64,000 nt of DNA, from contig JAQUOV010000004.1 of assembly GCA_028716965.1 (NCBI GenBank), forward strand, positions 76,298 through 140,297, written 5' to 3'. The translations under genes and the position numbers were made by a program. Of the stretch, positions 2,313 to 59,692 are shown piece by piece; positions within the stretch are counted from its first letter, which is position 1, and each line of letters opens with the position of its first letter. The notes under the pieces are model-generated. The model was not told where the DNA came from. It saw nothing but the letters and a program-made list of their open reading frames with translations, and ran no database searches. The DNA is from Candidatus Omnitrophota bacterium (lineage in GTDB: Bacteria; Omnitrophota; Gorgyraeia; Gygaellales; Profunditerraquicolaceae).

Positions 2313-2346
2313 TATGTTTATGGGTGTTCAATTCTTTTAAAACTCT

Positions 2347-22044: not shown

Positions 22045-22061
22045 TATTTTGCTCTCGGGAT

Positions 22062-22199
22062 ATTGTTCGCGTGCGAAAATTTTCGCCGAGTGCTTCGGTT
22101 TACGTCTCGCTACGGCTACAGTATACTTACGCTGGTAAGATTCTGCCTCCGCTCGACGTAATTCCTCGCACTCTTTTGCCGAAAATTTTCTAATGCACG
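22062..22199. repeat. MITE-like element: imperfect ~25-30-nt terminal inverted repeats (gcgtgcgaaaattttcgccgagtgc / gcactcttttgccgaaaattttctaatgcacgc) around a ~75-nt core
   Basis: Arms read directly. Each arm contains the self-palindrome gcgaaaattttcgc / gccgaaaattttc. The core contains taagattctgcctc, related to the 5' motif of the rplS/rpmE leader family. Confidence 0.4.
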
Positions 22200-22237
22200 C
22201 TCCACAATATCCCTCGACAAAATATCTATAGATAGAA

Positions 22238-23656: not shown

Positions 23657-23800
23657 GCAGGGCGTTTGCAGGCCGAGCGGGCAAGGTTACCCGGCTATAT
23701 ACGAAGTAGGTAGAGCGAGGCCGAAACCCGAGCGAAGTTTGCCTCGCCGGGGCAAACGAGCGTCCCTGCGGGAAACAAGACAAGACAGACGCGTTAATAT
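23657..23800 (+). repeat. GC-rich structured intergenic element, copy A (candidate cis-regulatory RNA/ncRNA or miniature repeat)
   Basis: About 130 nt aligning with the reverse complement of 55493-55618. Shared blocks are cagggcRtttRcaggccgRgcRggcaWgg, cccgagcgaag, a 7-bp hairpin with compensatory changes (gtttgcc/ggcaaac versus gcctgcc/ggcaggc), and a 3' tail gaaacaagacaa(gaca)gacgcgtta. It ends 10 nt before the tgt ATG. Confidence 0.5.
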
Positions 23801-23809
23801 TGGGAAAGT

Positions 23810-24922
23810 ATGTTTACTTTAATTCATAAAGACAAAAATAGTAAAGCTAGGTTGGGAAAGCTGGTAACTGCGCATGGGGAGATTGATACTCCCGCATTTA
23901 TGCCCGTAGGCACGCATGCTACGATTAAAGGCCTCATGCTTAAGGATGTGGAGGAGGCGGGGGCGCAGATAATTTTGTCAAATGCTTATCATGTGTTTCT
24001 GCGTCCGGGCATAGAGACGGTTAAGAAGGCCGGCGGCTTGCACAAATTTATGGGCTGGGATAAGCCGATACTAACGGATAGCGGAGGGTACCAGATCTTT
24101 AGCCTTGCGCTTTTCCGCAAAATGCATGACCGGGGCGTAGAATTTCAGTCGCATATAGACGGCCTGAAGCATTTCCTTACCCCCGAAGACGTAATTAAGA
24201 TCCAGGAGGATTTAGGTTCGGATATCATCATGCCGCTTGATGAATGCGTGCATTATCCATGTACGCGCGACCAGTCAAAAATAGCAATGGAGAGGACGCT
24301 TGCCTGGGCAAAAAGGTCAAAAGAGGCCTATCATAAAGAAAAACAGGCATTGTTTGGAATTATTCAGGGGGCTACTTATGAGGACCTGCGCAAAGATTGC
24401 GCCGGGCGCATGGTTGATATGGATTTTGACGGTTATTCCATCGGCGGAGTTTCTGTTGGCGAGTCCAGCAATTTAATATATAATATCATTGAGCTGGTCA
24501 GCGGCTTGCTCCCGGAAGATAAACCGCGTTATGCCATGGGTATCGGCTATCCGTTTGATATAGTAGAAGCCGTGGACCGCGGCGTGGATATGTTTGATTG
24601 CGTAATCCCCACGCGTTACGGCAGGAACGGTACGGCTTTTACAAGCAGCGGCAAGGTGATCATCCGTAACTCTTCCTATGCCGAAGATTTCCGGCAGCTG
24701 GATGCCAAATGCGGCTGTTATGTCTGTAAGAATTTTTCCCGGGCGTACCTTAGGCATTTATTCAATGCTAAGGAGATGCTGGGGTTGATTTTGCTTAGTT
24801 TTCATAATGTCTATTTCTTCCTGGATTTAATGCGCCAGATCCGGCAGGCGATAAAAGAGGATAAGTTCAGCCAGTTTAAACAGATCTTTTTAAGCGGCTA
24901 CAATAACCAGATATGCGCATAG
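23810..24922 (+). CDS. tgt: queuine tRNA-ribosyltransferase
   Basis: TPAFMPVGT, zinc site CxCxxC...H near the C-terminus; full length. Confidence 0.95.
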   Translation: MFTLIHKDKNSKARLGKLVTAHGEIDTPAFMPVGTHATIKGLMLKDVEEAGAQIILSNAYHVFLRPGIETVKKAGGLHKFMGWDKPILTDSGGYQIFSLALFRKMHDRGVEFQSHIDGLKHFLTPEDVIKIQEDLGSDIIMPLDECVHYPCTRDQSKIAMERTLAWAKRSKEAYHKEKQALFGIIQGATYEDLRKDCAGRMVDMDFDGYSIGGVSVGESSNLIYNIIELVSGLLPEDKPRYAMGIGYPFDIVEAVDRGVDMFDCVIPTRYGRNGTAFTSSGKVIIRNSSYAEDFRQLDAKCGCYVCKNFSRAYLRHLFNAKEMLGLILLSFHNVYFFLDLMRQIRQAIKEDKFSQFKQIFLSGYNNQICA

Positions 24923-25593
24923 ATATAATTACTATTTTCCCGGGTATGTTTTCTGCCGTTTTGGATGAGTCTATCATCAAGCGCGCGCAGCAAAAAGGCA
25001 AGGTGGATATTTTTGTCCATGATTTAAGGCCTTACTCTTTGGATAAGCACCATAAGGTTGACGACCGGCCTTTCGGAGGCGGTTCGGGAATGATCTTGCA
25101 GGCAGAACCTATCTTCAGGGCGGTTGCGGCAATCAAGAGAAAGATTAAGGGTAGGAGCAGGGTAATTTTGCTCTGCCCTCAAGGAAAGAGTTTTAACCAT
25201 GCTTGTGCCAGGAGATTATCCAAGTGCAGCAATTTGATATTTATTTGCGGCCGTTACGAGGGGGTAGATGAAAGAGTCAGGCAGTATTTGGCTGATGAAG
25301 AACTTTCAATAGGGGATTATGTTTTGACCGGAGGTGAACTTGCCGCCATGGTTTTAGTGGACAGCATAGTCAGGTTGATCCCAGGTGTTTTGGGGGATAA
25401 AAATTCCTTGAATTTTGAGTCATTCGAAGGTAATCTATTAGAATATCCGCAATACAGCAGGCCGGCTAAGTTTAGAAAGTGGTCGGTCCCGGAGGTCCTG
25501 GTTTCCGGGGCTCACGATAAAATCAGCGCATGGCGTAAGGCCGAGGCGCTTAAACGCACCAGGCAAAGAAGACCGGATTTATTAAAAAAATAG
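24913..25593 (+). CDS. trmD: tRNA (guanine37-N1)-methyltransferase
   Basis: SPOUT fold motifs (IDIITIFP, GGGxGM); precedes rplS as in many bacteria. Confidence 0.93.
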   Translation: MRIDIITIFPGMFSAVLDESIIKRAQQKGKVDIFVHDLRPYSLDKHHKVDDRPFGGGSGMILQAEPIFRAVAAIKRKIKGRSRVILLCPQGKSFNHACARRLSKCSNLIFICGRYEGVDERVRQYLADEELSIGDYVLTGGELAAMVLVDSIVRLIPGVLGDKNSLNFESFEGNLLEYPQYSRPAKFRKWSVPEVLVSGAHDKISAWRKAEALKRTRQRRPDLLKK

Positions 25594-25720
25594 GGTTAAG
25601 ATTCCGCCTCACTTGTTCGGCGGATTTCGTTAAACAAGGGCATAGGGTGCTCAAAATTCACGCTTTGATACTTGACAGGTTTGTCAAGTATCAAGCGCTC
25701 ATTTAAAGGAGGCAACAGTA
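25594..25720 (+). promoter_or_regulatory. conserved ribosomal-protein leader/repeat, copy 1 (upstream of rplS)
   Basis: Shares taagattccgcctca...ttcggcgga...ttgac-hairpin-gtcaagcgctcatttaaaggaggca with 39985-40115. The last 23 nt before the start region are identical in both copies and include the RBS. Confidence 0.45.
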
Positions 25721-26077
25721 ATGGATATTAAAACAATTGAATCATCTTTTACGAAGAAAGATATGCCGCAGTTTAATATCGGGGACACGGTGAAGGTGTT
25801 CACCAGGATCCCCGAAGGGGTGGATAAATTCCGCCTGCATCCGTTTGAGGGGGTGGTAATTGCAAAAAGCGGTTCAGGTATAAAGCTTAATTTTACGGTA
25901 AGGAAGATTTCTTTCGGCGAAGGGATTGAGCGCGTCTTCCCGCTTTATTCCCCTACTATTGAGCGCATTGAAATTATCCGTTCGGGAAAGGTAAAGAGGG
26001 CCAAGCTTTATTATTTAAGAAGCAAGATCGGCAAGCATGCCACCAAGATAGAAAGCAAAGAAACAAAAGCAAATTAG
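25721..26077 (+). CDS. rplS: 50S ribosomal protein L19
   Basis: Typical L19 length and FxxGDxVxV motif. Confidence 0.95.
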   Translation: MDIKTIESSFTKKDMPQFNIGDTVKVFTRIPEGVDKFRLHPFEGVVIAKSGSGIKLNFTVRKISFGEGIERVFPLYSPTIERIEIIRSGKVKRAKLYYLRSKIGKHATKIESKETKAN

Positions 26078-29119: not shown

Positions 29120-29190
29120 GCATGCTCCAAAGGCAGGACCCCGGGGCGTAATAGGCGAGAAACAAAACAAGACAGACGCGTTAGGATCCA
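29120..29190 (+). repeat. partial copy of the GC-rich structured element (3' half), ending 10 nt before the metF-like start
   Basis: ggggcgtaataggcgagaaacaaaacaagacagacgcgtta aligns with the 3' tail of copy A; 17 nt are identical (acaagacagacgcgtta). Confidence 0.35.
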
Positions 29191-29196
29191 ACTACC

Positions 29197-30066
29197 ATGA
29201 CATTCAAAGAAAAAATACTGGCGGGGAAATTCCTGCTTACTTCAGAGGTTGGCCCGGCCAAAGGCATACATACGGACCATCTGCTTGCCGAGGCAGAGCT
29301 TTTTCTATCAAAGGCGGACGCGATAAATGTTACTGACCTGCAGAGTTCGGTTATGCGCCTGGGTTCTCTTGCCGTCAGCTGCCTGCTTAAGCAAAAAGGT
29401 TTTGAGCCGATTTACCAGCTGACCTGCCGTGACCGCAACCGCCTGGCACTGCAATCGGATTTATTATCCGCTGCCGCACTGGGGATTCGGAATGTTTCAA
29501 TTTTGACCGGCGACCATCCGGCCCTGGGCGACCATCCGGAAGCCAAGCCTGTTTTTGATTTGGATTCAGTGCAGTTATTACAGGTAGCAAGAAAGCTTGA
29601 GTCCGGACAGGATATGAAAGAGAATAAGCTTGAAGGTGATGCGCCGAAGTTTTGCCTTGGCGCGGTAGTCAACCCGGGAGCTGACCCTTTAGAGCCGCAG
29701 ATCATGAAGATGGAGAAAAAGATTTCCGCCGGGGCCGAATTCTTTCAGACCCAGGCGGTCTATGATATAAAGGCATTTGAAAACTTTGTTGCCAGGACAA
29801 GGCATTTAAAGGTGCCGGTTATGGCGGGGATCGTTTTATTGAAATCAGCGGGGATGGCCCGTTTTATGAATAAGCATGTAGCCGGGGTATTTGTCCCGGA
29901 TGAACTGATTAAAGAAATGGAAGAAGCCAAAGATAAAGCGGCTGCTTCAATTAAAATTGCCAGCCGGTTGATCAAGGAATTAAAACCCATGTGCCGGGGG
30001 ATCCATATTATGCCTATCGGCTGGAACAAAATCGTGCCGCAGGTTTTAGAGGCATCCGGATTATGA
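29197..30066 (+). CDS. metF: methylenetetrahydrofolate reductase (MetF family, short acetogen/archaeal-like form)
   Basis: FAD-binding TIM-barrel motifs of MetF. Length of 289 aa without a C-terminal regulatory domain. Confidence 0.8.
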   Translation: MTFKEKILAGKFLLTSEVGPAKGIHTDHLLAEAELFLSKADAINVTDLQSSVMRLGSLAVSCLLKQKGFEPIYQLTCRDRNRLALQSDLLSAAALGIRNVSILTGDHPALGDHPEAKPVFDLDSVQLLQVARKLESGQDMKENKLEGDAPKFCLGAVVNPGADPLEPQIMKMEKKISAGAEFFQTQAVYDIKAFENFVARTRHLKVPVMAGIVLLKSAGMARFMNKHVAGVFVPDELIKEMEEAKDKAAASIKIASRLIKELKPMCRGIHIMPIGWNKIVPQVLEASGL

Positions 30067-33956: not shown

Positions 33957-33998
33957 AAGCGTACTGCAAGAAACCTTTCCCTATATTGAATTCCTTTT

Positions 33999-34046
33999 AT
34001 ACTTTCGCGGTTAAAAATTGCATTATCTATAGCATAGATGATTTTA
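33999..34046. promoter_or_regulatory. 46-nt near-perfect palindrome upstream of polA
   Basis: gcggttaaaaattgcattatctat-agc-atagatgattttaaccgc; about a 20-bp stem with one mismatch and a 3-nt loop. Confidence 0.35.
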
Positions 34047-34098
34047 ACCGCTCAAGTATTCCGCCCTTGGGAATTTAGGGCAGGCTCCATATTTAGTC

Positions 34099-36660
34099 AT
34101 GGCTGATAAAAATTTATTTTTAGTTGATGCTACCGCATTTTGCTACCGGGCTTTTTATGCCTTAAGCGGTTTGAGCACTTCCTCCGGCCAGCCTACAAAC
34201 GCAATTTACGGGTTCATAAATATCCTGAATAAGATTTTAAAGGAGCAGAAACCGGATTACTTGATCTGCTGTTTTGATGTCTCGCGGGATACCTTTCGCC
34301 TTGAGAAGTTTGCGCAGTACAAAATGCACAGGCCGCCGATGCCCGATGGCTTAAGCAGCCAGATGCCTATAATCAAGGAGGTGATCAGCGCATACGGCAT
34401 TCCGATCTTTGAAAAGAAAGGTTTTGAGGCGGATGATATTATCGCCGAGCTTGCCCGGAAGGCTGAGGCCAAAAAGATGCGCGTTACGATCGTAAGCAGC
34501 GATAAAGATATACTGCAATTAGTAAGCAGCCGCATCTGCGTGTTTAACCCTTATAAGGATAACGGGGTGCTTTACGATACGGAAAAAGTGAAAGAGGTTT
34601 TTGGGGTCAGCCCGAAGATGACCGCCGACATCATCGCGCTGATGGGTGATGACGCGGATAATATCCCGGGAGTCCCCGGTATAGGCGAAAAAACAGCAGG
34701 AAGGCTTATCTCTGAATTTGGTTCTTTGGATAAGCTGATTAAGAATGTTGCAAAAGTTGAGCCGGAAAAGACCAGGGAGGCGATAGCGGAACATCTTGAG
34801 CGTATAAAATTGAATAGAGAGTTGGTCAACCTGGATGAAAAGGTGGGCATGGAGCTGAATTTAAAAAAGCTTGGGCTTGGGACCCCGGATTACAGGCAGC
34901 TGGGCAATATCTTCAAAAGATTAGAGTTTAAGAGCCTGCTTAAAGAGCTTCCCGGCAACCAGGATGACCTGCTTGAGGTTAAATTAGATAACCCCGGCCC
35001 GGCAGAATTAAAAGGCCTGTTGAGAAATGTCAAAGAGATTGCTCTCTATGGCACGAAGGCGGAGGATTTATTCTTGAGCATGGGGGATAAGATATTCAGC
35101 GCTCAACTTCCGGGTAAAGAACTGGAAGAGGCAATGAGCGATGACCGGATAAAGAAGTCCGGGTACGACCTTAAGAAGCTGAAGGTTTCTCTTTTTAAGC
35201 AGGGCCTGATCTTAAACGGCCTTGATTTTGATGTTATGATCGCCGCTTATTTGCTGAACCCATCGCGCTCAAGTTACGCGCTCGTAGATTTGGTACTGGA
35301 AAACCTTGGTGAATTTATCCGCCAGGAGAACCTGGAAGGAAAAAACGCTTTGGCCCTGGTGCTTAAGTTAAAACCGGTGCTCAAGGGGGCTTTGGAAGAA
35401 AAAGGCCTATTGCCTCTTTTTGTTGAACTTGAGATGCCTTTGGTCAGCGTGCTTGCGCAAATGGAGCAGCACGGCATAAAACTGGATTTAAAATTACTTA
35501 AAGGACTCTCACGGGATATTGAAAAGAGGCTGATAAAGCTGATCGCGGATATCTATGAGGCAAGCGGCACGCAATTTAACATTAATTCACCGAAACAACT
35601 GGGCCAGGTTTTGTTTGAGAAGCTGGCTCTGCCGGTAATCAAAAAGACGAAGACCGGGCCTTCTACCGATGAAGAGGTGCTTAAGCGTTTAAGCGGTAAG
35701 CATGTGCTTCCGGCGCTGTTATTGGAGTACCGGCAGTTGACCAAATTAAAGAATACTTATGTCGACGCCCTGCCTAAACTGGTAGATCCTGAAACGGACA
35801 GGGTGCATACGTCTTTTAATCAGACAGGGACTGAAACCGGAAGGCTTAGTTCAAGCAATCCTAATTTACAGAATATTCCGGTTAAGACAGAGATCGGCAG
35901 CAAGATACGTCAGGCGATTATTGCTTCCGGAAAAGATAACTGCCTTTTATCTTGTGATTATTCGCAGATAGAATTAAGGGTGCTGGCTCACCTTTGCGGT
36001 GACAAAACTTTGGTTAAGGCTTTCCATGAAAACCAGGATGTGCACCGTTTGACCGCCTCCTTGATCTATAACATTGCCGAAGAGGATGTCGTTGAGAGCA
36101 TGCGCGAAGTCGCTAAAAGGGTGAACTTCGGCATCATCTACGGCCAGAGCGCTTATGGCTTAAGCAGGGACTTGGGGATTCCGGTTAACCAGGCGCAGGA
36201 TTTTATTGACGCTTATTTTTTACGTTACCCAAAAGTAAGGGATTTTATTGACGCGCAGATCAACAAGGCAAGGAGCGAGGGGTTTGTCACGACACTGATG
36301 GGCAGGAGAAGGTATATTCCGGAGATCAACAGCAAAAATATGGGTATTCGGCAGTTTGCCGAACGGCAGGCGGTAAATACCCCTATTCAAGGTACTGCCA
36401 GTGATTTGATTAAACTGGCAATGGTCAGGATATCCGAAGAGATCAATAACAACAGCTTAAAAAGCAAGATGATCCTGCAGATCCACGATGAGCTGGTTTT
36501 TGAACTGCCGGTAACTGAACTGGGCAGCTTAACCAGGCTGGTAAAAGAAAAAATGGAACAGGTAAAGAAGCTTGATGTGCCGATAAGGATAGATATGAAG
36601 AAAGGTAAGAACTGGCTGGATATGCTTGCCTGTCCGGCAGTCAGGGAGACTATTGAATGA
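34099..36660 (+). CDS. polA: DNA polymerase I
   Basis: 5'-3' exonuclease N-domain; polymerase motifs A (DYSQIELR), B (RRxxKxxNFGxxYG) and C (QIHDE). Confidence 0.93.
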   Translation: MADKNLFLVDATAFCYRAFYALSGLSTSSGQPTNAIYGFINILNKILKEQKPDYLICCFDVSRDTFRLEKFAQYKMHRPPMPDGLSSQMPIIKEVISAYGIPIFEKKGFEADDIIAELARKAEAKKMRVTIVSSDKDILQLVSSRICVFNPYKDNGVLYDTEKVKEVFGVSPKMTADIIALMGDDADNIPGVPGIGEKTAGRLISEFGSLDKLIKNVAKVEPEKTREAIAEHLERIKLNRELVNLDEKVGMELNLKKLGLGTPDYRQLGNIFKRLEFKSLLKELPGNQDDLLEVKLDNPGPAELKGLLRNVKEIALYGTKAEDLFLSMGDKIFSAQLPGKELEEAMSDDRIKKSGYDLKKLKVSLFKQGLILNGLDFDVMIAAYLLNPSRSSYALVDLVLENLGEFIRQENLEGKNALALVLKLKPVLKGALEEKGLLPLFVELEMPLVSVLAQMEQHGIKLDLKLLKGLSRDIEKRLIKLIADIYEASGTQFNINSPKQLGQVLFEKLALPVIKKTKTGPSTDEEVLKRLSGKHVLPALLLEYRQLTKLKNTYVDALPKLVDPETDRVHTSFNQTGTETGRLSSSNPNLQNIPVKTEIGSKIRQAIIASGKDNCLLSCDYSQIELRVLAHLCGDKTLVKAFHENQDVHRLTASLIYNIAEEDVVESMREVAKRVNFGIIYGQSAYGLSRDLGIPVNQAQDFIDAYFLRYPKVRDFIDAQINKARSEGFVTTLMGRRRYIPEINSKNMGIRQFAERQAVNTPIQGTASDLIKLAMVRISEEINNNSLKSKMILQIHDELVFELPVTELGSLTRLVKEKMEQVKKLDVPIRIDMKKGKNWLDMLACPAVRETIE

Positions 36661-38628: not shown

Positions 38629-38724
38629 AGTTCAGGAGGCCCTTCCAAATCCGCGCAAGGGTTTCACTGGATAGAAACTTACAGGTGTTCAAATTTTCCC
38701 GGATAAAAACTAAAGGAGGAATTT

Positions 38725-39984
38725 GTGGAGAAATTAGATATTAAGAACCTTAAAGAGATGAAGATCGGCGAGTTGAATAAACTGGCCAAAGAGTTAAATG
38801 CTAACGGCACCAGCGGCTTAAAAAAACAGGATTTAATTTTTAAGATACTTCAGGCCCAGGCAGAGAAGGAAGGGTTGATGTTCGGGGAAGGGGTATTAGA
38901 GATCCTCTCCGAAGGTTTCGGTTTCTTAAGGAGCCCGAATTACAACTATCTTCCCTGCCCCGACGATATATATATCTCTCCGTCGCAGATCAGGAAATTT
39001 GAGCTGCGTACCGGGGATACGGTCAGCGGGCAGATTCGCCCTCCGAAAGAAGGGGAAAAATATTTTGCCCTGCTTAAAGTGGAAGCGGTCAATTTCGAGA
39101 ACCCCGAAGAGGTGAAGGAAAAAGTGCTTTTTGATAACCTTACACCTGTTTACCCGCGCCAGCCCTTTAATATGGAGACCAAACCGGATGAGATATCCAT
39201 GCGTATTATGGGCTTGCTTACTCCTATCGGGAAAGGCCAGCGCGGATTAATTGTTGCCCAGCCTTACAGCGGCAAGACAGTTTTATTACAGAAGATCGCC
39301 AATGCCATCACCGGCAATAACCCGGATGTTGTCTTAATCGTTCTTTTAATCGACGAGCGGCCGGAAGAGGTTACCGATATGCAGCGTAATGTCAAGGGCG
39401 AGGTGATCTCTTCTACCTTTGATGAGCCGCCGGAACGCCACGTGCAGGTAGCCGAGATCGTCCTGGAAAAGGCAAAACGGCTGGTCGAACACAAGCGCGA
39501 TGTAGTGATCCTTTTGGATAGCATTACCCGCCTGGCGCGCGCCTATAACTCTGTGGTCCCGCACAGTGGAAAGGTGCTTTCAGGAGGAATTGATTCCAAC
39601 GCCCTACAGAAACCCAAAAGGTTTTTTGGCGCAGCGCGCGCGGTAGATGAAGGCGGAAGTTTGACGATTATCGCAACCGCCCTGGTGGATACCGGAAGCC
39701 GTATGGATGAAGTTATCTTTGAAGAGTTCAAAGGTACAGGCAATATGGAGACCCAGCTTGACCGCAACCTGTTCCAGCGCAGGATTTACCCGGCAATTGA
39801 TATTAAGCGTTCCAATACCCGCCATGAAGAGCTTCTGGTTAAGCCGGATGTGCTGCAGAAGACATGGATCTTACGAAAAGTGTTGAATGAATTAAATAAT
39901 GTGGAAGCTATGGAGTTGTTGATAGAGAAACTAAGCAAGACCAAGAATAACGAAGAATTCTTAAACAGCATGAATCAGAAGTAA
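38725..39984 (+). CDS. rho: transcription termination factor Rho
   Basis: N-terminal RNA-binding domain, Walker A (GKT) and RecA-like core; GTG start. Confidence 0.95.
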
Positions 39985-40115
39985 GATTCCGCCTCAGAAC
40001 CTATGCCAAAATTATCGTAGAGAATTTTGGCATATTCGGCGGAATAAATTCGCGCATTGACTTACTCACACTGTCGTGTTCGTAAGTCAAGCGCTCATTT
40101 AAAGGAGGCAGTAAA
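39985..40115 (+). promoter_or_regulatory. conserved ribosomal-protein leader/repeat, copy 2 (upstream of rpmE)
   Basis: Same 5' (taagattccgcctca) and 3' (gtcaagcgctcatttaaaggaggca) ends as 25594-25720. The outer stem ttccgcc/ggcggaa encloses an extra palindromic hairpin (atgccaaaatt...aattttggcat). A second hairpin (gacttac...gtaagtc) abuts the RBS. Confidence 0.45.
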
Positions 40116-40319
40116 ATGAAAGAGAAGATACATCCTAATTACAAAGAAAGTACGATTGTCTGCGCCTGCGGTGAGACAGTACGTACCCGTTCCACCAAGC
40201 CGAGCATCCGCGTTGAGATCTGTTCAAGGTGCCATCCGTTTTTTACCGGGAAGCAAAAATTAGTGGATTCAGCAGGGCGCGTGGATAAGTTTATGAAGAA
40301 GTACGGCAAGAAGCAGTAG
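40116..40319 (+). CDS. rpmE: 50S ribosomal protein L31 (Zn-ribbon form, C-x2-C ... C-x2-H)
   Basis: KIHPNY N-terminus and length 67 aa. Confidence 0.93.
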
Positions 40320-56959: not shown

Positions 56960-59692
56960 ATGAGAACAGAAAAGATTGCCTGCGTTTCGGTATTGACCGG
57001 GCCTTTAAAAGGCCGGGAATTTCCGGTTAAATCAGATTCTCCCGTATTAATAGGCAGGGATGATCATACGACTATTAAGATTGCTTACGATGATTATTGC
57101 TCAAGAAAGCACGCGATAATTTATCTTGAGGGCATGATCTGCCTTATTGAAGATTTAAACAGCGCCAATGGTACGCTCCTGAATAATACCCTTATCCACG
57201 GAAAGAATGAATTAAAAGATAAAGACGTTATAGGCCTCGGAGATACCAAGCTGGTTGTTTCTATAAAAGATTCTCTTAAGGAAGAAAGCATCGCGCCGGA
57301 TTTGGCTACTAACATAAAAACCGGTGATTCCATATACGGGCGTTATGAAGTGCATCATATCCTGGAAGCCGGGATAGGGATTGCCTGCGTCTGTTATGAT
57401 AATATAAACCAGGTTCCTTACGTACTGAAGACCCTGCAAAGAAAGTATTTGGTTTCCCCGCAAAGCCAATCCTGTTTTGAGAAGAAATCGCTTGCCTGGA
57501 TAGGGTTAGGCAAACATCCTTATATTGTCAGCGCCTATTTAGCCATCCGGATAGAAAACTACCCTTTTATTGTCCTTGATTATATTGTACCGGATGAGAA
57601 CGGGAGAAACAGCTTAAGCCATCTGCTGGGGAATCTAACTTTATCCGAGATCCTTAAATATTCAATAGAGTTTTGTTACGGCATGGAGCATGCTTACGCA
57701 AAAGGAATTGAGGCTCACGGAAATATAAAACCGAATAATATTATGATTACTCCAGATAAAGCCGTGAAGATAACCGATTTCGGGTTTGCAAAATTATCGC
57801 AAGAGATCGATTTTAACGAGCATATCCCGGAAAAAGAAGATTTGGATTTGGCTATTTTCAAAAGTAATAGCGGTGTAACCGCCGGCACGCTTCCTTATAT
57901 GGCTCCCGAGCAATTTGACGGACAGATGAACCAGCTAAGCGATATTTATTCTTTCGGCGTTGTCCTTTACCAGATGGCTAAGGCAGGGGCATTGCCTTTT
58001 AGCGGGAAGGGCCCATCGGAATACGAGAAGGCGCATAAGGAACAGGCAGCTGCTGGTTTTGACTCGCCTCTTTTTGCCATTATCAAGAAATGTTTGGAAA
58101 AAGACCCCGCTAAAAGATATATTGACTTTGCAGCGATGAGGATAGAGCTGCAGGAATTGCTTTTAAAGGAAACAGGGGAGAAGATAACTCTGCCGGAAGG
58201 CGCAAAGCTGGAATCTTGTGAAGCTATGAATAAAGGTGCTTCTTTATATTATCTCGGTAGGTACGAAGGGGGGATTGCCTGTTACGATAAGGCCATAGCC
58301 ATTAACCCCGCATATTCCGATGCCTATTATAACCGGGGCAATGCCTATTATGATAAAGGCGATCTTGTGCAGGCTGTCTCTGATTACAGCAAGGCCATAG
58401 AAATTAACCCCGCATATTCCAAGGCTTATTACAGAAGGGGAGTTTTCTATCATAGTAAAGGCAATCTTGTATTGGCTATCTCTGACTACAATAAAGCTAT
58501 AGAGATCAATCCCGCATATCCCGATGCCTATTATAACCGGGGCAATGCCTATTATGATAAGGGCGATCTTGTGCAGGCTGTCTCTGATTACAGCAAGGCC
58601 ATGGAGATCAGCCCTAAAGATGCCAAGGCTTATAAGGGCCGGGGTATTGCTCATTATAAAAAAGGAGAGCTTGAGCTGTCTATCTCTGATTATAATAAAG
58701 CTTTAGAGATCAACCCTAACGATGCCGAAGCTTACAGCAGCCGGGGGATTGCTTATTATAAGAAAGGTAAATTTGACCTGTCTATCTCTGACTACAATAA
58801 AGCTATAGAGATCAATCCCGCATATCCCAATGCCTATTATAACCGGGGCAATGCCTATTATGATAAGGGCGATCTTGTGCAGGCTGTCTCTGATTACAAT
58901 AAGGCCATAGAGATCAACCCTAAAGACGCCGAAGCTTACAGCAGCCGGGGGATTGCTTATTATAAAAAAGGAGATTTTGAAGAAGCTATCTCTGATTACA
59001 GCAGGGCAATAGCCATTAACCCCGCATATTCCAAAGCTTATTGTAACCGAGGCAATGCCTATTATGATAAAGGCAGCTTTGAACAGGCTATCTCTGATTA
59101 CAATAAGGCCATAGAGATCAATCCTAAAGATTCTGAAGTCTATAGAAGCCGCGGGGTCGCCTATCACGTTAGAGGCAACCTTGAGCAGGCTGTCTCTGAT
59201 TACAATAAGGCCATAGAGATCAACCCTAAAGACGCTAGAGCCTATAACAGCCGCGGGATCGCCTATTACAAAAAAGGCGATCTTGTGCAGGCTATCTCTG
59301 ATTACAGTAACGCCATAGAGATCAACCCTAAAGATGCCGAAGCCTATAACAGCCGCGGGATCGCCTATCACGTCAGAGGCAAACTTGAGCAGGCCATCTT
59401 TGATTTTAGCAGGGCTATAGCAATCAACCCGGAATATTCCAAGGCTTATTGTAACCGGGGAGGCGTCCATTATGATAAAGGGTATCTTGAAGAAGCTATC
59501 TCTGACTACAATAAAGCCATAGAGATCAACCCTGAATATTCCAAAGCTTATTGCAGCCGCGGGGCTGCTTATTTCTTGAAAAAAGACTATGATAAAAGCT
59601 GGAAAGATGTGCATAAGGCAGAAGAATTAGGATATAAGATCCCCATTAATTTGATTAATGATTTGAAAAAAGCTTCTGGTAAGGGGATTTGA
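56960..59692 (+). CDS. FHA domain - Ser/Thr kinase-like domain (probable pseudokinase) - 14x TPR repeat protein
   Basis: N-terminal FHA (GR...SRKHA...NGT). Kinase fold with DFG and APE present, but the catalytic loop reads HGNIKPNN instead of HRDLKPxN and no canonical glycine-rich loop. C-terminal half consists of 34-aa TPR units. Confidence 0.85.
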   Translation: MRTEKIACVSVLTGPLKGREFPVKSDSPVLIGRDDHTTIKIAYDDYCSRKHAIIYLEGMICLIEDLNSANGTLLNNTLIHGKNELKDKDVIGLGDTKLVVSIKDSLKEESIAPDLATNIKTGDSIYGRYEVHHILEAGIGIACVCYDNINQVPYVLKTLQRKYLVSPQSQSCFEKKSLAWIGLGKHPYIVSAYLAIRIENYPFIVLDYIVPDENGRNSLSHLLGNLTLSEILKYSIEFCYGMEHAYAKGIEAHGNIKPNNIMITPDKAVKITDFGFAKLSQEIDFNEHIPEKEDLDLAIFKSNSGVTAGTLPYMAPEQFDGQMNQLSDIYSFGVVLYQMAKAGALPFSGKGPSEYEKAHKEQAAAGFDSPLFAIIKKCLEKDPAKRYIDFAAMRIELQELLLKETGEKITLPEGAKLESCEAMNKGASLYYLGRYEGGIACYDKAIAINPAYSDAYYNRGNAYYDKGDLVQAVSDYSKAIEINPAYSKAYYRRGVFYHSKGNLVLAISDYNKAIEINPAYPDAYYNRGNAYYDKGDLVQAVSDYSKAMEISPKDAKAYKGRGIAHYKKGELELSISDYNKALEINPNDAEAYSSRGIAYYKKGKFDLSISDYNKAIEINPAYPNAYYNRGNAYYDKGDLVQAVSDYNKAIEINPKDAEAYSSRGIAYYKKGDFEEAISDYSRAIAINPAYSKAYCNRGNAYYDKGSFEQAISDYNKAIEINPKDSEVYRSRGVAYHVRGNLEQAVSDYNKAIEINPKDARAYNSRGIAYYKKGDLVQAISDYSNAIEINPKDAEAYNSRGIAYHVRGKLEQAIFDFSRAIAINPEYSKAYCNRGGVHYDKGYLEEAISDYNKAIEINPEYSKAYCSRGAAYFLKKDYDKSWKDVHKAEELGYKIPINLINDLKKASGKGI
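58244..59614 (+). repeat. array of ~102-nt (34-codon) tandem repeats encoding the TPR units, several copies nearly identical at the DNA level
   Basis: For example 58321-58380, 58525-58585 and 58825-58885 are almost identical; the repeats create the spurious 303-aa minus-strand ORF. Confidence 0.7.

Follow-up and report, generated by a model that had tools for sequence, protein, structure and literature searches.

The trmD-rplS and rho-rpmE spacers of one Candidatus Omnitrophota contig (JAQUOV010000004.1, assembly GCA_028716965.1) raise the question of why the leaders of two unrelated ribosomal-protein genes should look alike. Both lie within a stretch of 64,000 nucleotides (nt), positions 76,298 to 140,297 of the forward strand, which we refer to as the window. 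A preliminary description made from these letters alone had suggested either a common cis-regulatory RNA for L19 and L31 or, alternatively, a terminator-plus-expression-signal cassette or miniature mobile element. We find that the two leaders are members of a family of repeated, modular intergenic elements found across Candidatus Omnitrophota. The best reading of this family is as a mosaic of palindromic units, akin to repetitive extragenic palindromic (REP) sequences and bacterial interspersed mosaic elements (BIME), rather than as a ribosomal-protein operator. The role that we favour for it, and to which we would give an even chance of being right, is that of a co-transcribed, intercistronic RNA hairpin spacer.

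The shared module occupies positions 25597-25714 before rplS and 39982-40110 before rpmE, and Pfam assigns the flanking genes as trmD, rplS and rnhB for copy 1 and rho, rpmE and prfA for copy 2. Its layout begins with a hairpin at the upstream stop codon (P1), continues with an optional module (P2) and closes with a long hairpin (Hp) that reaches right up to the next gene's ribosome-binding site or start codon. The common architecture noticed earlier is borne out, since a 5' 15-mer, both hairpins and a 3' 24-mer are common to the two leaders and none of these is expected by chance. The 15-mer, TAAGATTCCGCCTCA, matches the window exactly twice, at 25597, where it begins 3 nt past the trmD stop (TAG, 25591-25593), and at 39982, where it overlaps the rho stop (TAA, 39982-39984). 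The 23-mer CAAGCGCTCATTTAAAGGAGGCA, described as identical in both leaders, was also found exactly twice (25692-25714 and 40088-40110), with zero matches at three or fewer mismatches expected in shuffled sequence, but the true identity extends to 24 nt and ends in the Shine-Dalgarno (SD) sequence (repeat family D15 of the repeat finder). Compared with shuffles, the two leaders fold far more stably, with z = -5.2 for copy 1 and -6.5 for copy 2. The parts of the two copies are as follows.

25597-25626, plus strand: P1 hairpin of copy 1, stem UCCGCC (25603-25608) / GGCGGA (25619-25624), loop UCACUUGUUC
25625-25652, plus strand: optional module P2 of copy 1, UUUCGUUAAACAAGGGCAUAGGGUGCUC, with a small hairpin GGGCA (25638-25642) / UGCUC (25648-25652)
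25653-25705, plus strand: core hairpin Hp of copy 1, AAAAU-UC-ACGC, stem 25664-25677, loop GGUU, stem 25682-25694, GCGC-UC-AUUUA
25705-25723, plus strand: SD AAAGGAGG of copy 1 (25705-25712), 8-nt spacer and rplS ATG (25721-25723)
39982-40045, plus strand: P1 hairpin of copy 2, beginning at the rho stop, stem AUUCCGCC (39986-39993) / GGCGGAAU (40038-40045)
40003-40014 and 40024-40035, plus strand: inner hairpin of the copy 2 P1, arms UAUGCCAAAAUU and AAUUUUGGCAUA
40045-40101, plus strand: core hairpin Hp of copy 2 in its consensus form, UAAAU-UC-GCGC-A-UUGACUUAC (40057-40065)...GUAAGUCAA (40082-40090)-GCGC-UC-AUUUA
40101-40118, plus strand: SD AAAGGAGG of copy 2 (40101-40108) and rpmE ATG (40116-40118)

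Much of the detail in the preliminary description holds in outline and needed adjustment at the edges. Its first stem, ttccgcc/ggcggaa, is present, but in copy 1 it consists of 6 base pairs (bp), UCCGCC/GGCGGA, with a 3' arm GGCGGAU; in place of the 9-nt loop and 47-nt insert that it was said to enclose, copy 1 has a 10-nt loop and copy 2 an 8-bp stem around 44 nt. The second hairpin, ttgac...gtcaa, is there too but is longer than had been appreciated; its closing pairs are (A/G)CGC...GCGC, and it includes AAAUUC and UCAUUU as flanks of its own. Considered across copies, Hp is a long imperfect palindrome, UAAAU-UC-GCGC-(A)-nnAACUUACG...CGUAAGUUnn-GCGC-UC-AUUUA, in which the flanks AAAUUC (5') and UCAUUU (3') pair with each other around a constant 2x2 UC/UC internal loop. 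The A is usually bulged and the ACUUACG/CGUAAGU stem is well conserved, while the tip is free-form and the loop varies in length between copies.

A first alignment of 24 copies, from which the covariance model R1 was built, contains compensatory changes in 8 of its 13 pairs, and R1 identified six more diverged copies among the Omnitrophota loci. In order to avoid the bias of a seed that contains the SD, the pattern AAATTCGCGC-N20-50-GCGCTCATTT was applied to metagenomes, and 97 distinct metagenome copies make up the alignment (A4) behind a second model, R2. In A4, 95.9% of the cells are paired and 101 double-change cells are observed against 15.8 in shuffles; none of 500 shuffles attained the observed values, and slid registers were likewise nowhere near the observed pairing. 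The outermost pair covaries (UA 84, CG 6, AU 1, GC 1), and in a sister subfamily, UAAGU-UC-GGAC...GUCC-UC-ACUUA, every helix has changed in a compensatory manner with the UC/UC loop retained. The proposal that the leaders contain hairpins with compensatory arms is thus supported by covariation: the hairpins are real and are kept by compensatory changes. Within the window, copy 2 scores 93.1 bits with R1 and 73.4 bits with R2, and copy 1, in which the upper stem of Hp has diverged yet is perfectly paired, scores 56.4 bits (E = 4e-10) and 32.1 bits (E = 5e-5), respectively.

The module is widespread. A scan of one genome per GTDB species (596 Gb) for the 18-mer GCGCTCATTTAAAGGAGG returned 35 loci, of which 22 have the hairpin, all just upstream of a start codon. 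These 22 loci come from 19 Omnitrophota assemblies, four labelled Planctomycetes, and in those four the L19 or S16 is near-identical to Omnitrophota ones. The other 13 loci lie in coding sequence of unrelated phyla, which is about the chance number for an 18-mer in 596 Gb; R2, derived from the independent metagenome set, recovers all 22 of the former and none of the latter. In metagenomes the pattern scan found at least 120 loci, with the hairpin in approximately 100 among the matches listed, so the module is present in at least 19 Omnitrophota assemblies and more than 100 metagenome contigs. R2 gives around 140 matches in 643 kb of metagenome loci, with a density of one copy per 1.5-2.5 kb on the most crowded contigs (a maximum of six within about 8 kb of L150, and six in 13 kb of L082; L numbers are our locus labels). 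The window L19 is 92% identical to that of Omnitrophica UBA6253, and the trmD-rplS spacer keeps the module across lineages in which L19 is 92% down to 68% identical to that of the window. Among IMG/VR viral contigs, 10 pattern matches were obtained and the hairpin was present in none of them. Scanning the window with Rfam 15 at gathering thresholds gave no matches, relaxing the E-value to 10 for the two leaders gave chance matches only, and nothing relevant came out of full-text searches of the literature, whether for the motif words or for repeats, leaders and hairpins of Omnitrophota; we have therefore found no earlier description of the module in Rfam 15 or the searchable literature.

The modules themselves are combined in different ways. 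P1 is found 5' of most Hp copies, its 3' arm abutting AAAUUC, and its stems differ wholly between lineages (for example ACCCCACAC/GUGUGGGGU vs AUACCUGCA/UGCAGGUAU). We regard P1 as covarying because these sequences differ between lineages yet pair; between loci, AUUCCGCC/GGCGGAAU is exchanged for AUCCCGCC/GGCGGGAU, with unrelated stems elsewhere. The trmD-rplS leaders of nine Omnitrophota lineages are mosaics, in which P1 may be short, may enclose a further palindrome of 38-44 nt or may belong to a different type. Among orthologous or paralogous leaders, the 28-nt P2 is present in L033, L021, L030, L007 and L034 and absent from L005, L002, L018, L027 and window copy 2, and the long P1 insert of the copy 2 type recurs in L021, L027, L034, L075 and L089. 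Larger assemblies also occur among the metagenome contigs, in the form of HpA(reverse)-P1-HpB(forward) mosaics, head-to-head pairs at divergent genes with one P1 in common and only 23-150 nt between them, and a tandem array with a 107-nt period in which an Hp-like hairpin alternates with a P1-like one (L108 700-1160). In other lineages, a gap between co-directional genes can consist of a stop codon inside a reverse Hp, P1, a forward Hp and the AUG, with zero spare nucleotides. As a separate observation, the sequence GGTGYTCAAWWTT that ends P2 occurs in three plus-strand intergenic leaders of the window (2323-2335, 25646-25658 and 38684-38696), each time preceded by a GC-rich hairpin and UUUC(G/A)YU, although this count is marginal, three matches being attained in 7 of 100 shuffles.

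The spacing of the element relative to its neighbours is tight. All true copies are intergenic. In a survey of 106 metagenome copies, 67 are followed by a co-directional start codon, which lies either one SD-length away or 0-3 nt after UCAUUU; in about 27 copies the latter arrangement occurs without an SD. A further 18 abut, or lie within 150 nt of, the 3' end of a convergent gene, with the stop codon overlapping the terminal UUA in most, three are separated by 1 nt from a convergent tRNA's 3' end and one lies 1 nt before a tRNA 5' end. In this last case (L111 2384-2540) Hp stops 1 nt short of the mature tRNA-Ser 5' end, and the reverse Hp of L067, L125 and L148 starts 1 nt past the discriminator base of tRNA-Lys, tRNA-Phe and tRNA-Gly; none of these four tRNA genes encodes CCA. 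The SD-less starts are genuine, given the conserved N-termini of GlmS (MCGIVG), AccC, Dxr and L11, and SD-type and SD-less copies coexist within single contigs (L129, L154 and L110). In five cases the outer helix begins with the upstream stop UAA, which pairs with the UUA immediately preceding the AUG. One copy, in sense orientation, resides in the transcribed spacer of an Omnitrophota rRNA operon (L070 1880-2760, minus strand), where the order is 16S 3' end, tRNA-Ile, tRNA-Ala, P1 and Hp, a boxA-like TGATCTTTGACAACTA and 23S. Where both neighbours could be assigned, 27 copies are forward and 11-14 reverse between co-directional genes, while 6 lie between divergent genes and 5 between convergent ones. 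We also observed two diverged copies in inverted orientation in L023 (6077-6375), with no downstream ORF (open reading frame), each followed by a shared CATCGCTGCGAAGGCAAGGTTATAAGCGC; these could be small-RNA genes or decayed copies.

The signals surrounding the element are informative as to how it might be expressed. On its own strand, G-U pairs exceed A-C mismatches by 19:9 in Hp, 42:17 in P1 and 61:26 overall, with reverse-context copies too few for this bias to be linked to the direction of transcription. When 93 copies were scanned for strong sigma-70-like promoters (at least 10 of 12 positions), every strong match preceded P1, with eight at a distance of 47-120 nt upstream of AAATTC, and none lay inside the element. 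Since the promoters are upstream of P1 (L023, L092 and L063 are clear examples), the whole module would be part of the 5' untranslated region wherever a promoter is visible. The two window leaders gave neither a promoter nor a canonical terminator match. The region in which they lie has about 60 of its 65 ORFs on the plus strand and mostly intergenic gaps below 70 nt, the few long gaps holding palindromic elements, and with this one-strand organisation and the negative scans the leaders are most simply read as intercistronic RNA. In both copies the SD, AAAGGAGG, is exactly complementary to the 16S 3' end CCUCCUUU in L070, while the UCAUUU that precedes it is not complementary to rRNA.

Several conventional identities for parts of the element were considered, and most of them were rejected. 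An extended anti-SD pairing of UCAUUUAAAGGAGG fails because the 16S 3' end in L070 is GGAUCACCUCCUUUCU, so that AAAGGAGG alone pairs. A canonical terminator was discounted given the negative scans and the fact that genes start right after Hp (0-20 nt), the tails that follow the hairpins being UCAUUUA and AUAAAUU/UUUCGUU. A promoter inside the element, which would require -35 and -10 hexamers at 16-18 nt spacing and might be based on TAAATT, TAAGTT or TTGACT, falters on hexamers that fail at critical positions in several copies, on variable spacing and on the negative scans. A Nus-factor boxA/boxB antitermination site would have a boxA consensus of the GCUCUUUAA or GUUCUUUGAAAAC type next to a hairpin, and GCGCUCAUUUAA resembles boxA with one inserted base. 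A boxA/Nus site stays an unsupported candidate, the L070 rRNA spacer having a separate, much better boxA-like TGATCTTTGACAACTA about 75 nt downstream of the element.

Taken as a structured spacer, the module would be transcribed within a polycistronic or 5'-untranslated RNA and would uncouple adjacent cistrons from one another. The upstream message (trmD or rho) would be capped on its 3' side by P1, and Hp would provide the downstream message with a stable 5' hairpin, a site at which an RNase specific for double strands, such as RNase III, could cut, or both. RNase III would cleave within a helix of at least about 20 bp that has an internal loop, and the length and internal loop of Hp fit this. 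In the window copies, an unpaired A/U-rich stretch and a consensus SD come directly after Hp, and the highly needed L19 and L31 might by this arrangement be expressed independently of the low-abundance trmD and rho products. We hold this RNA-level role with moderate confidence. Family membership, structure, distribution and junction geometry are demonstrated by the data, and transcription through the element, along with any processing or stabilising effect, is our reading of the sequence and its context. A number of points weigh against it. The window holds just two copies in 64 kb by R1 and R2, high copy number being seen only in other lineages; both orientations and all contexts are used roughly as available, and a neutral or selfish repeat would look alike. 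The strong conservation of ACUUACG/CGUAAGU in the stem is not explained by a purely structural role. In addition, ordinary 30S initiation would be expected to suffer from a stable hairpin that ends 0-3 nt ahead of an AUG in uncut RNA, and so the model needs a hypothetical processing step for those copies. A bolder version of the spacer model, which we put forward as a rather improbable one, is that Omnitrophota use the hairpins as a form of punctuation. Here Hp and P1, sitting flush with stops, starts and tRNA ends and within the rRNA spacer, would be recognised by a dedicated factor or RNase through the UC/UC loop (GA/GA on the other strand) and the ACUUACG/CGUAAGU stem; the polycistronic RNA would be cut into units, leaving many genes to be translated from near-leaderless, SD-less mRNAs.

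Other explanations need to be weighed against the spacer model, beginning with the one that prompted interest in these leaders. Were they autoregulatory, the RNA that they have in common would be bound by L19, by L31 or by both, or else by some shared factor, and rplS and rpmE would be repressed. Both window copies do precede ribosomal-protein genes, and the orthologous rplS, rpsP and rpmE leaders of relatives carry the module; at these three genes one repeatedly finds a subfamily that has GGAGGCA and the UUGACUUAC...GUAAGUCAA stem. The genes behind the 22 genome loci include rplS (7), rpsP (3), rpmE and rpsC, but also gyrB, ribH, an HtpX-like protease, a pilin-like protein, lipoproteins and others. 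More broadly, the module stands upstream of more than 40 different gene families, a wide housekeeping mix that is not confined to highly expressed genes and includes a glnB-like gene, ACP, GAPDH, enolase, DnaK, GlmS, Dxr, LpxD, RecJ, Mfd and pilins. The preliminary description had itself reasoned that occurrence before many unrelated genes would favour a generic repeat, and such occurrence is what we observe, for the GGAGGCA subfamily as well (L075, L150, L092, L003, L012, L008 and others), together with copies at tRNAs, in the rRNA spacer and in both orientations. The two leaders match none of the ribosomal-protein leaders of Rfam, even at E-values up to 10, and L19 and L31 bind different rRNA sites. 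As with the L19_leader and L31 leader families of Rfam, there is a structured RNA directly upstream of rplS or rpmE, but those families are operon-specific and mimic the rRNA site of the protein, whereas the Omnitrophota module is found at dozens of unrelated genes. A ribosomal-protein operator is hardly credible on this evidence and is essentially excluded by the distribution. The alternative offered alongside it, of an expression-signal cassette or miniature repeat, comes much closer to the data, although the traits of a terminator, a promoter and a MITE (a miniature transposable element with inverted repeats) are not seen. A purely selfish origin is less likely in our estimation, though plausible: the element would be mobile palindromic DNA of the REP/RAYT (REP-associated tyrosine transposase) or MITE type, its single-stranded hairpin would be recognised by a transposase, it would lie at rplS and rpmE by accident, and changes in expression, if any, would be a side effect. 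The multiple copies, both orientations, HpA-P1-HpB mosaics and period-107 array of L108 all fit this, as do the gain or loss of whole modules at orthologous rplS leaders, the L023 copies without any downstream ORF and the occupation of every intergenic context, including the rRNA spacer. Hairpin-recognising HUH transposases and integrases use a constant mismatched loop and conserved stem sequence, and DNA hairpins also tolerate G-T pairs, which makes the G-U:A-C bias compatible with selfish DNA. On the other hand, phmmer found no IS200/RAYT-like ORF among 3,713 ORFs in approximately 1.1 Mb of loci, a weak test given that the IS200 TnpA query was approximate and such genes are single-copy. There is no target-site duplication either, the terminal positions covarying as complements (C...G, A...U) and not as direct repeats; a MITE with TA duplication was rejected on the same grounds (CG 6, AU 1, GC 1), the ends being complementary because the unit as a whole is a hairpin. 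REPs are usually species- or genus-specific, whereas here the core is conserved and the trmD-rplS position kept down to 68% L19 identity, and these compact genomes (60 of 65 ORFs on one strand, most gaps below 70 nt) still retain modules of 130-190 nt with zero spare nucleotides.

If the module were instead a terminator-plus-promoter or expression cassette, P1, as a GC stem followed by UUUCGUU or AUAAAUU, would end the upstream gene and a promoter within the module would restart transcription at or just after Hp, with for example TAAATT as a -10, or TAAGTT in the 3' arm. P1 is GC-rich and has U-rich sequence after it in copy 1 and in two other window spacers, TAAATT fits TAnnnT, the tight spacing of UCAUUU to starts and to a tRNA 5' end would suit transcription start there, and the head-to-head pairs at divergent genes (one common P1, 23-150 nt between) might be expected of such a device. 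This account is nevertheless weakly supported and quite improbable, since neither window leader matches a sigma-70-type promoter or canonical terminator, and the strong promoter matches of the 93 copies lie upstream of P1 and never inside. Moreover, the critical -10 positions are broken in functional-looking copies (TAAATC in L026, TTAATT in L003, GGGTTT in L031), with loops of such variable length there can be no fixed -35 box in the 5' arm, the covarying outer helix needs both flanks on one strand, and the reverse-oriented and rRNA-spacer copies do not fit. We see similarly slight prospects for a device of translational coupling or SD-independent initiation, in which the hairpin would join the upstream stop and downstream AUG at its base, or in which cleavage would leave a near-leaderless mRNA. 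The roughly 27 bona fide starts without an SD 0-3 nt after UCAUUU, with their conserved N-termini, argue for it, as do the coexistence of both start types in L129, L154 and L110 and the five stops embedded in the outer helix in pairing with UUA. However, the window copies have a full consensus SD and no need of such a device, and there is nothing to couple at the tRNA, rRNA-spacer, convergent and reverse copies. An integron attC-like site, finally, is only loosely alike (helix, unpaired spacer, bulged helix and variable tip) and was rejected given the absence of GTTRRRY/RYYYAAC boxes, the core housekeeping neighbours and the mixed orientations.

The assignment to the REP/BIME class follows from the intergenic palindromes, their multiple copies in both orientations, the mosaics and arrays and the gain and loss of modules at orthologous sites. 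As with REP and BIME sequences of Enterobacteria and Pseudomonads, we have intergenic imperfect palindromes, present in both orientations, on some contigs in many copies, and often within operons, whose units are joined with other short motifs into mosaics and tandem arrays (here HpA-P1-HpB and L108). REP sequences and BIMEs are described as co-transcribed and proposed to act in mRNA stabilisation or termination (PMC3733652, PMC3184786) and as bearing a terminal GTAG or CGTC tetranucleotide tag (PMC3733652). The Omnitrophota units differ in being 55-80 nt long against 20-40, in lacking such a terminal tag (they end in UAAAU...AUUUA, with CGTC only inside the upper stem of some copies), in having no RAYT gene that we could find with an approximate query in about 1.1 Mb of loci, in a core conserved across a phylum-level group and not one species, and in abutting starts and tRNA ends with 0-3 nt to spare around a constant UC/UC loop. 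The Neisseria Correia repeats (CREE/nemis) are likewise short, gene-adjacent repeats folding into hairpins, and according to PMC2649163 they are approximately 100-150 nt, co-transcribed, open to RNase III cutting or RNA-protecting, and able to alter adjacent gene expression. They carry 26-bp terminal inverted repeats, a TA target duplication, an integration host factor site and end promoters, none of which is seen in the Omnitrophota element, and the two have no sequence similarity. According to PMC3049150, pneumococcal BOX elements consist of boxA, a variable number of boxB and boxC, are transcribed with their neighbours and should, by prediction, fold into stable RNA structures. Our optional modules, the P1 insert and P2, are reminiscent of this in varying between orthologous leaders, while sequence, host phylum and module logic are different. 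Nor are BOX elements known to lie directly against start and stop codons. Phages T7 and SP82 have intercistronic RNase III hairpins that are repeated with similar sequences, have an internal loop and lie just before the next ribosome-binding site; cleavage leaves a protective hairpin on one product and a short leader on the other. Those phage signals have a fixed orientation and proven cleavage, whereas the Omnitrophota copies occur in both orientations and would be candidates for cleavage by their form. Under the spacer model, the closest functional counterparts are these phage hairpins and the RNase III-cleaved Correia elements (PMC2649163).

Elsewhere in the window, R1 with all filters off matched the two known copies only, the next match scoring 16 bits. 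Two regions might nonetheless be considered relatives.

38650-38724, plus strand: rho leader with a GC hairpin, UUUCAC, the P2-like GGUGUUCAAAUUU and then GGAUAAAAACUAAAGGAGG, without the Hp hairpin
33993-34060, plus strand: UUUCGCGG-hairpin-CCGCUCAAGUA, in a 142-nt spacer before an ORF at 34099

The rho leader is a weak R1 match (15.3 bits) and is possibly related to the module, judging from its parts. The other region scores 17.9 bits with R2 (E = 0.12), which alone is not significant, and its status as a degenerate Hp relative is doubtful. A related 5' motif that had been placed in a MITE-like element at 22062-22199 could not be upheld: the 14-mer at 22136 has two mismatches, about 0.16 such matches being expected per window, and neither R1 nor R2 gave a match in the palindromic region 22048-22222. 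That region is itself a nested palindromic element of about 175 nt in the 193-nt gap between queA and the next ORF, with arms at 22048-22066/22204-22222, 22075-22085/22180-22190 (perfect) and 22088-22106/22155-22173; it folds with z = -3.05 and has a small CUUAC-GCUG-GUAAG hairpin within it. Another motif common to two leaders, GCG(G/A)GAAACAA(G/A)ACAAGACAGACGCGTTA, is present at 23768-23796 and 29155-29183 (93% identical), and its copies end 13-14 nt before an ATG (tgt at 23810 and an ORF at 29197) with no obvious SD. At 2340-2404 a near-consensus sigma-70 promoter, TTGACT-N17-TATATT, is found downstream of a terminator-like hairpin and before an ORF at 2405. The approximately 13 tandem 102-nt repeats at 58282-59601 encode 34-residue TPR-like units within a 910-residue ORF (56960-59692) and are ordinary.

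Omnitrophota are an uncultured phylum that includes ultra-small-celled members, and we know of nothing reported on their gene-expression signals. The element described here is defined by a consensus, two covariance models and more than 100 examples, and even if it is only a new REP/BIME-like family, it would still be a useful annotation feature and taxonomic marker. It also serves as a warning against naming such leaders as ribosomal-protein regulators. Should the hairpins truly direct RNA processing or SD-independent initiation, this would represent an unusual organisation of operon expression in compact genomes, and were the punctuation model to hold, it would be a bacterial analogue of mitochondrial tRNA punctuation.

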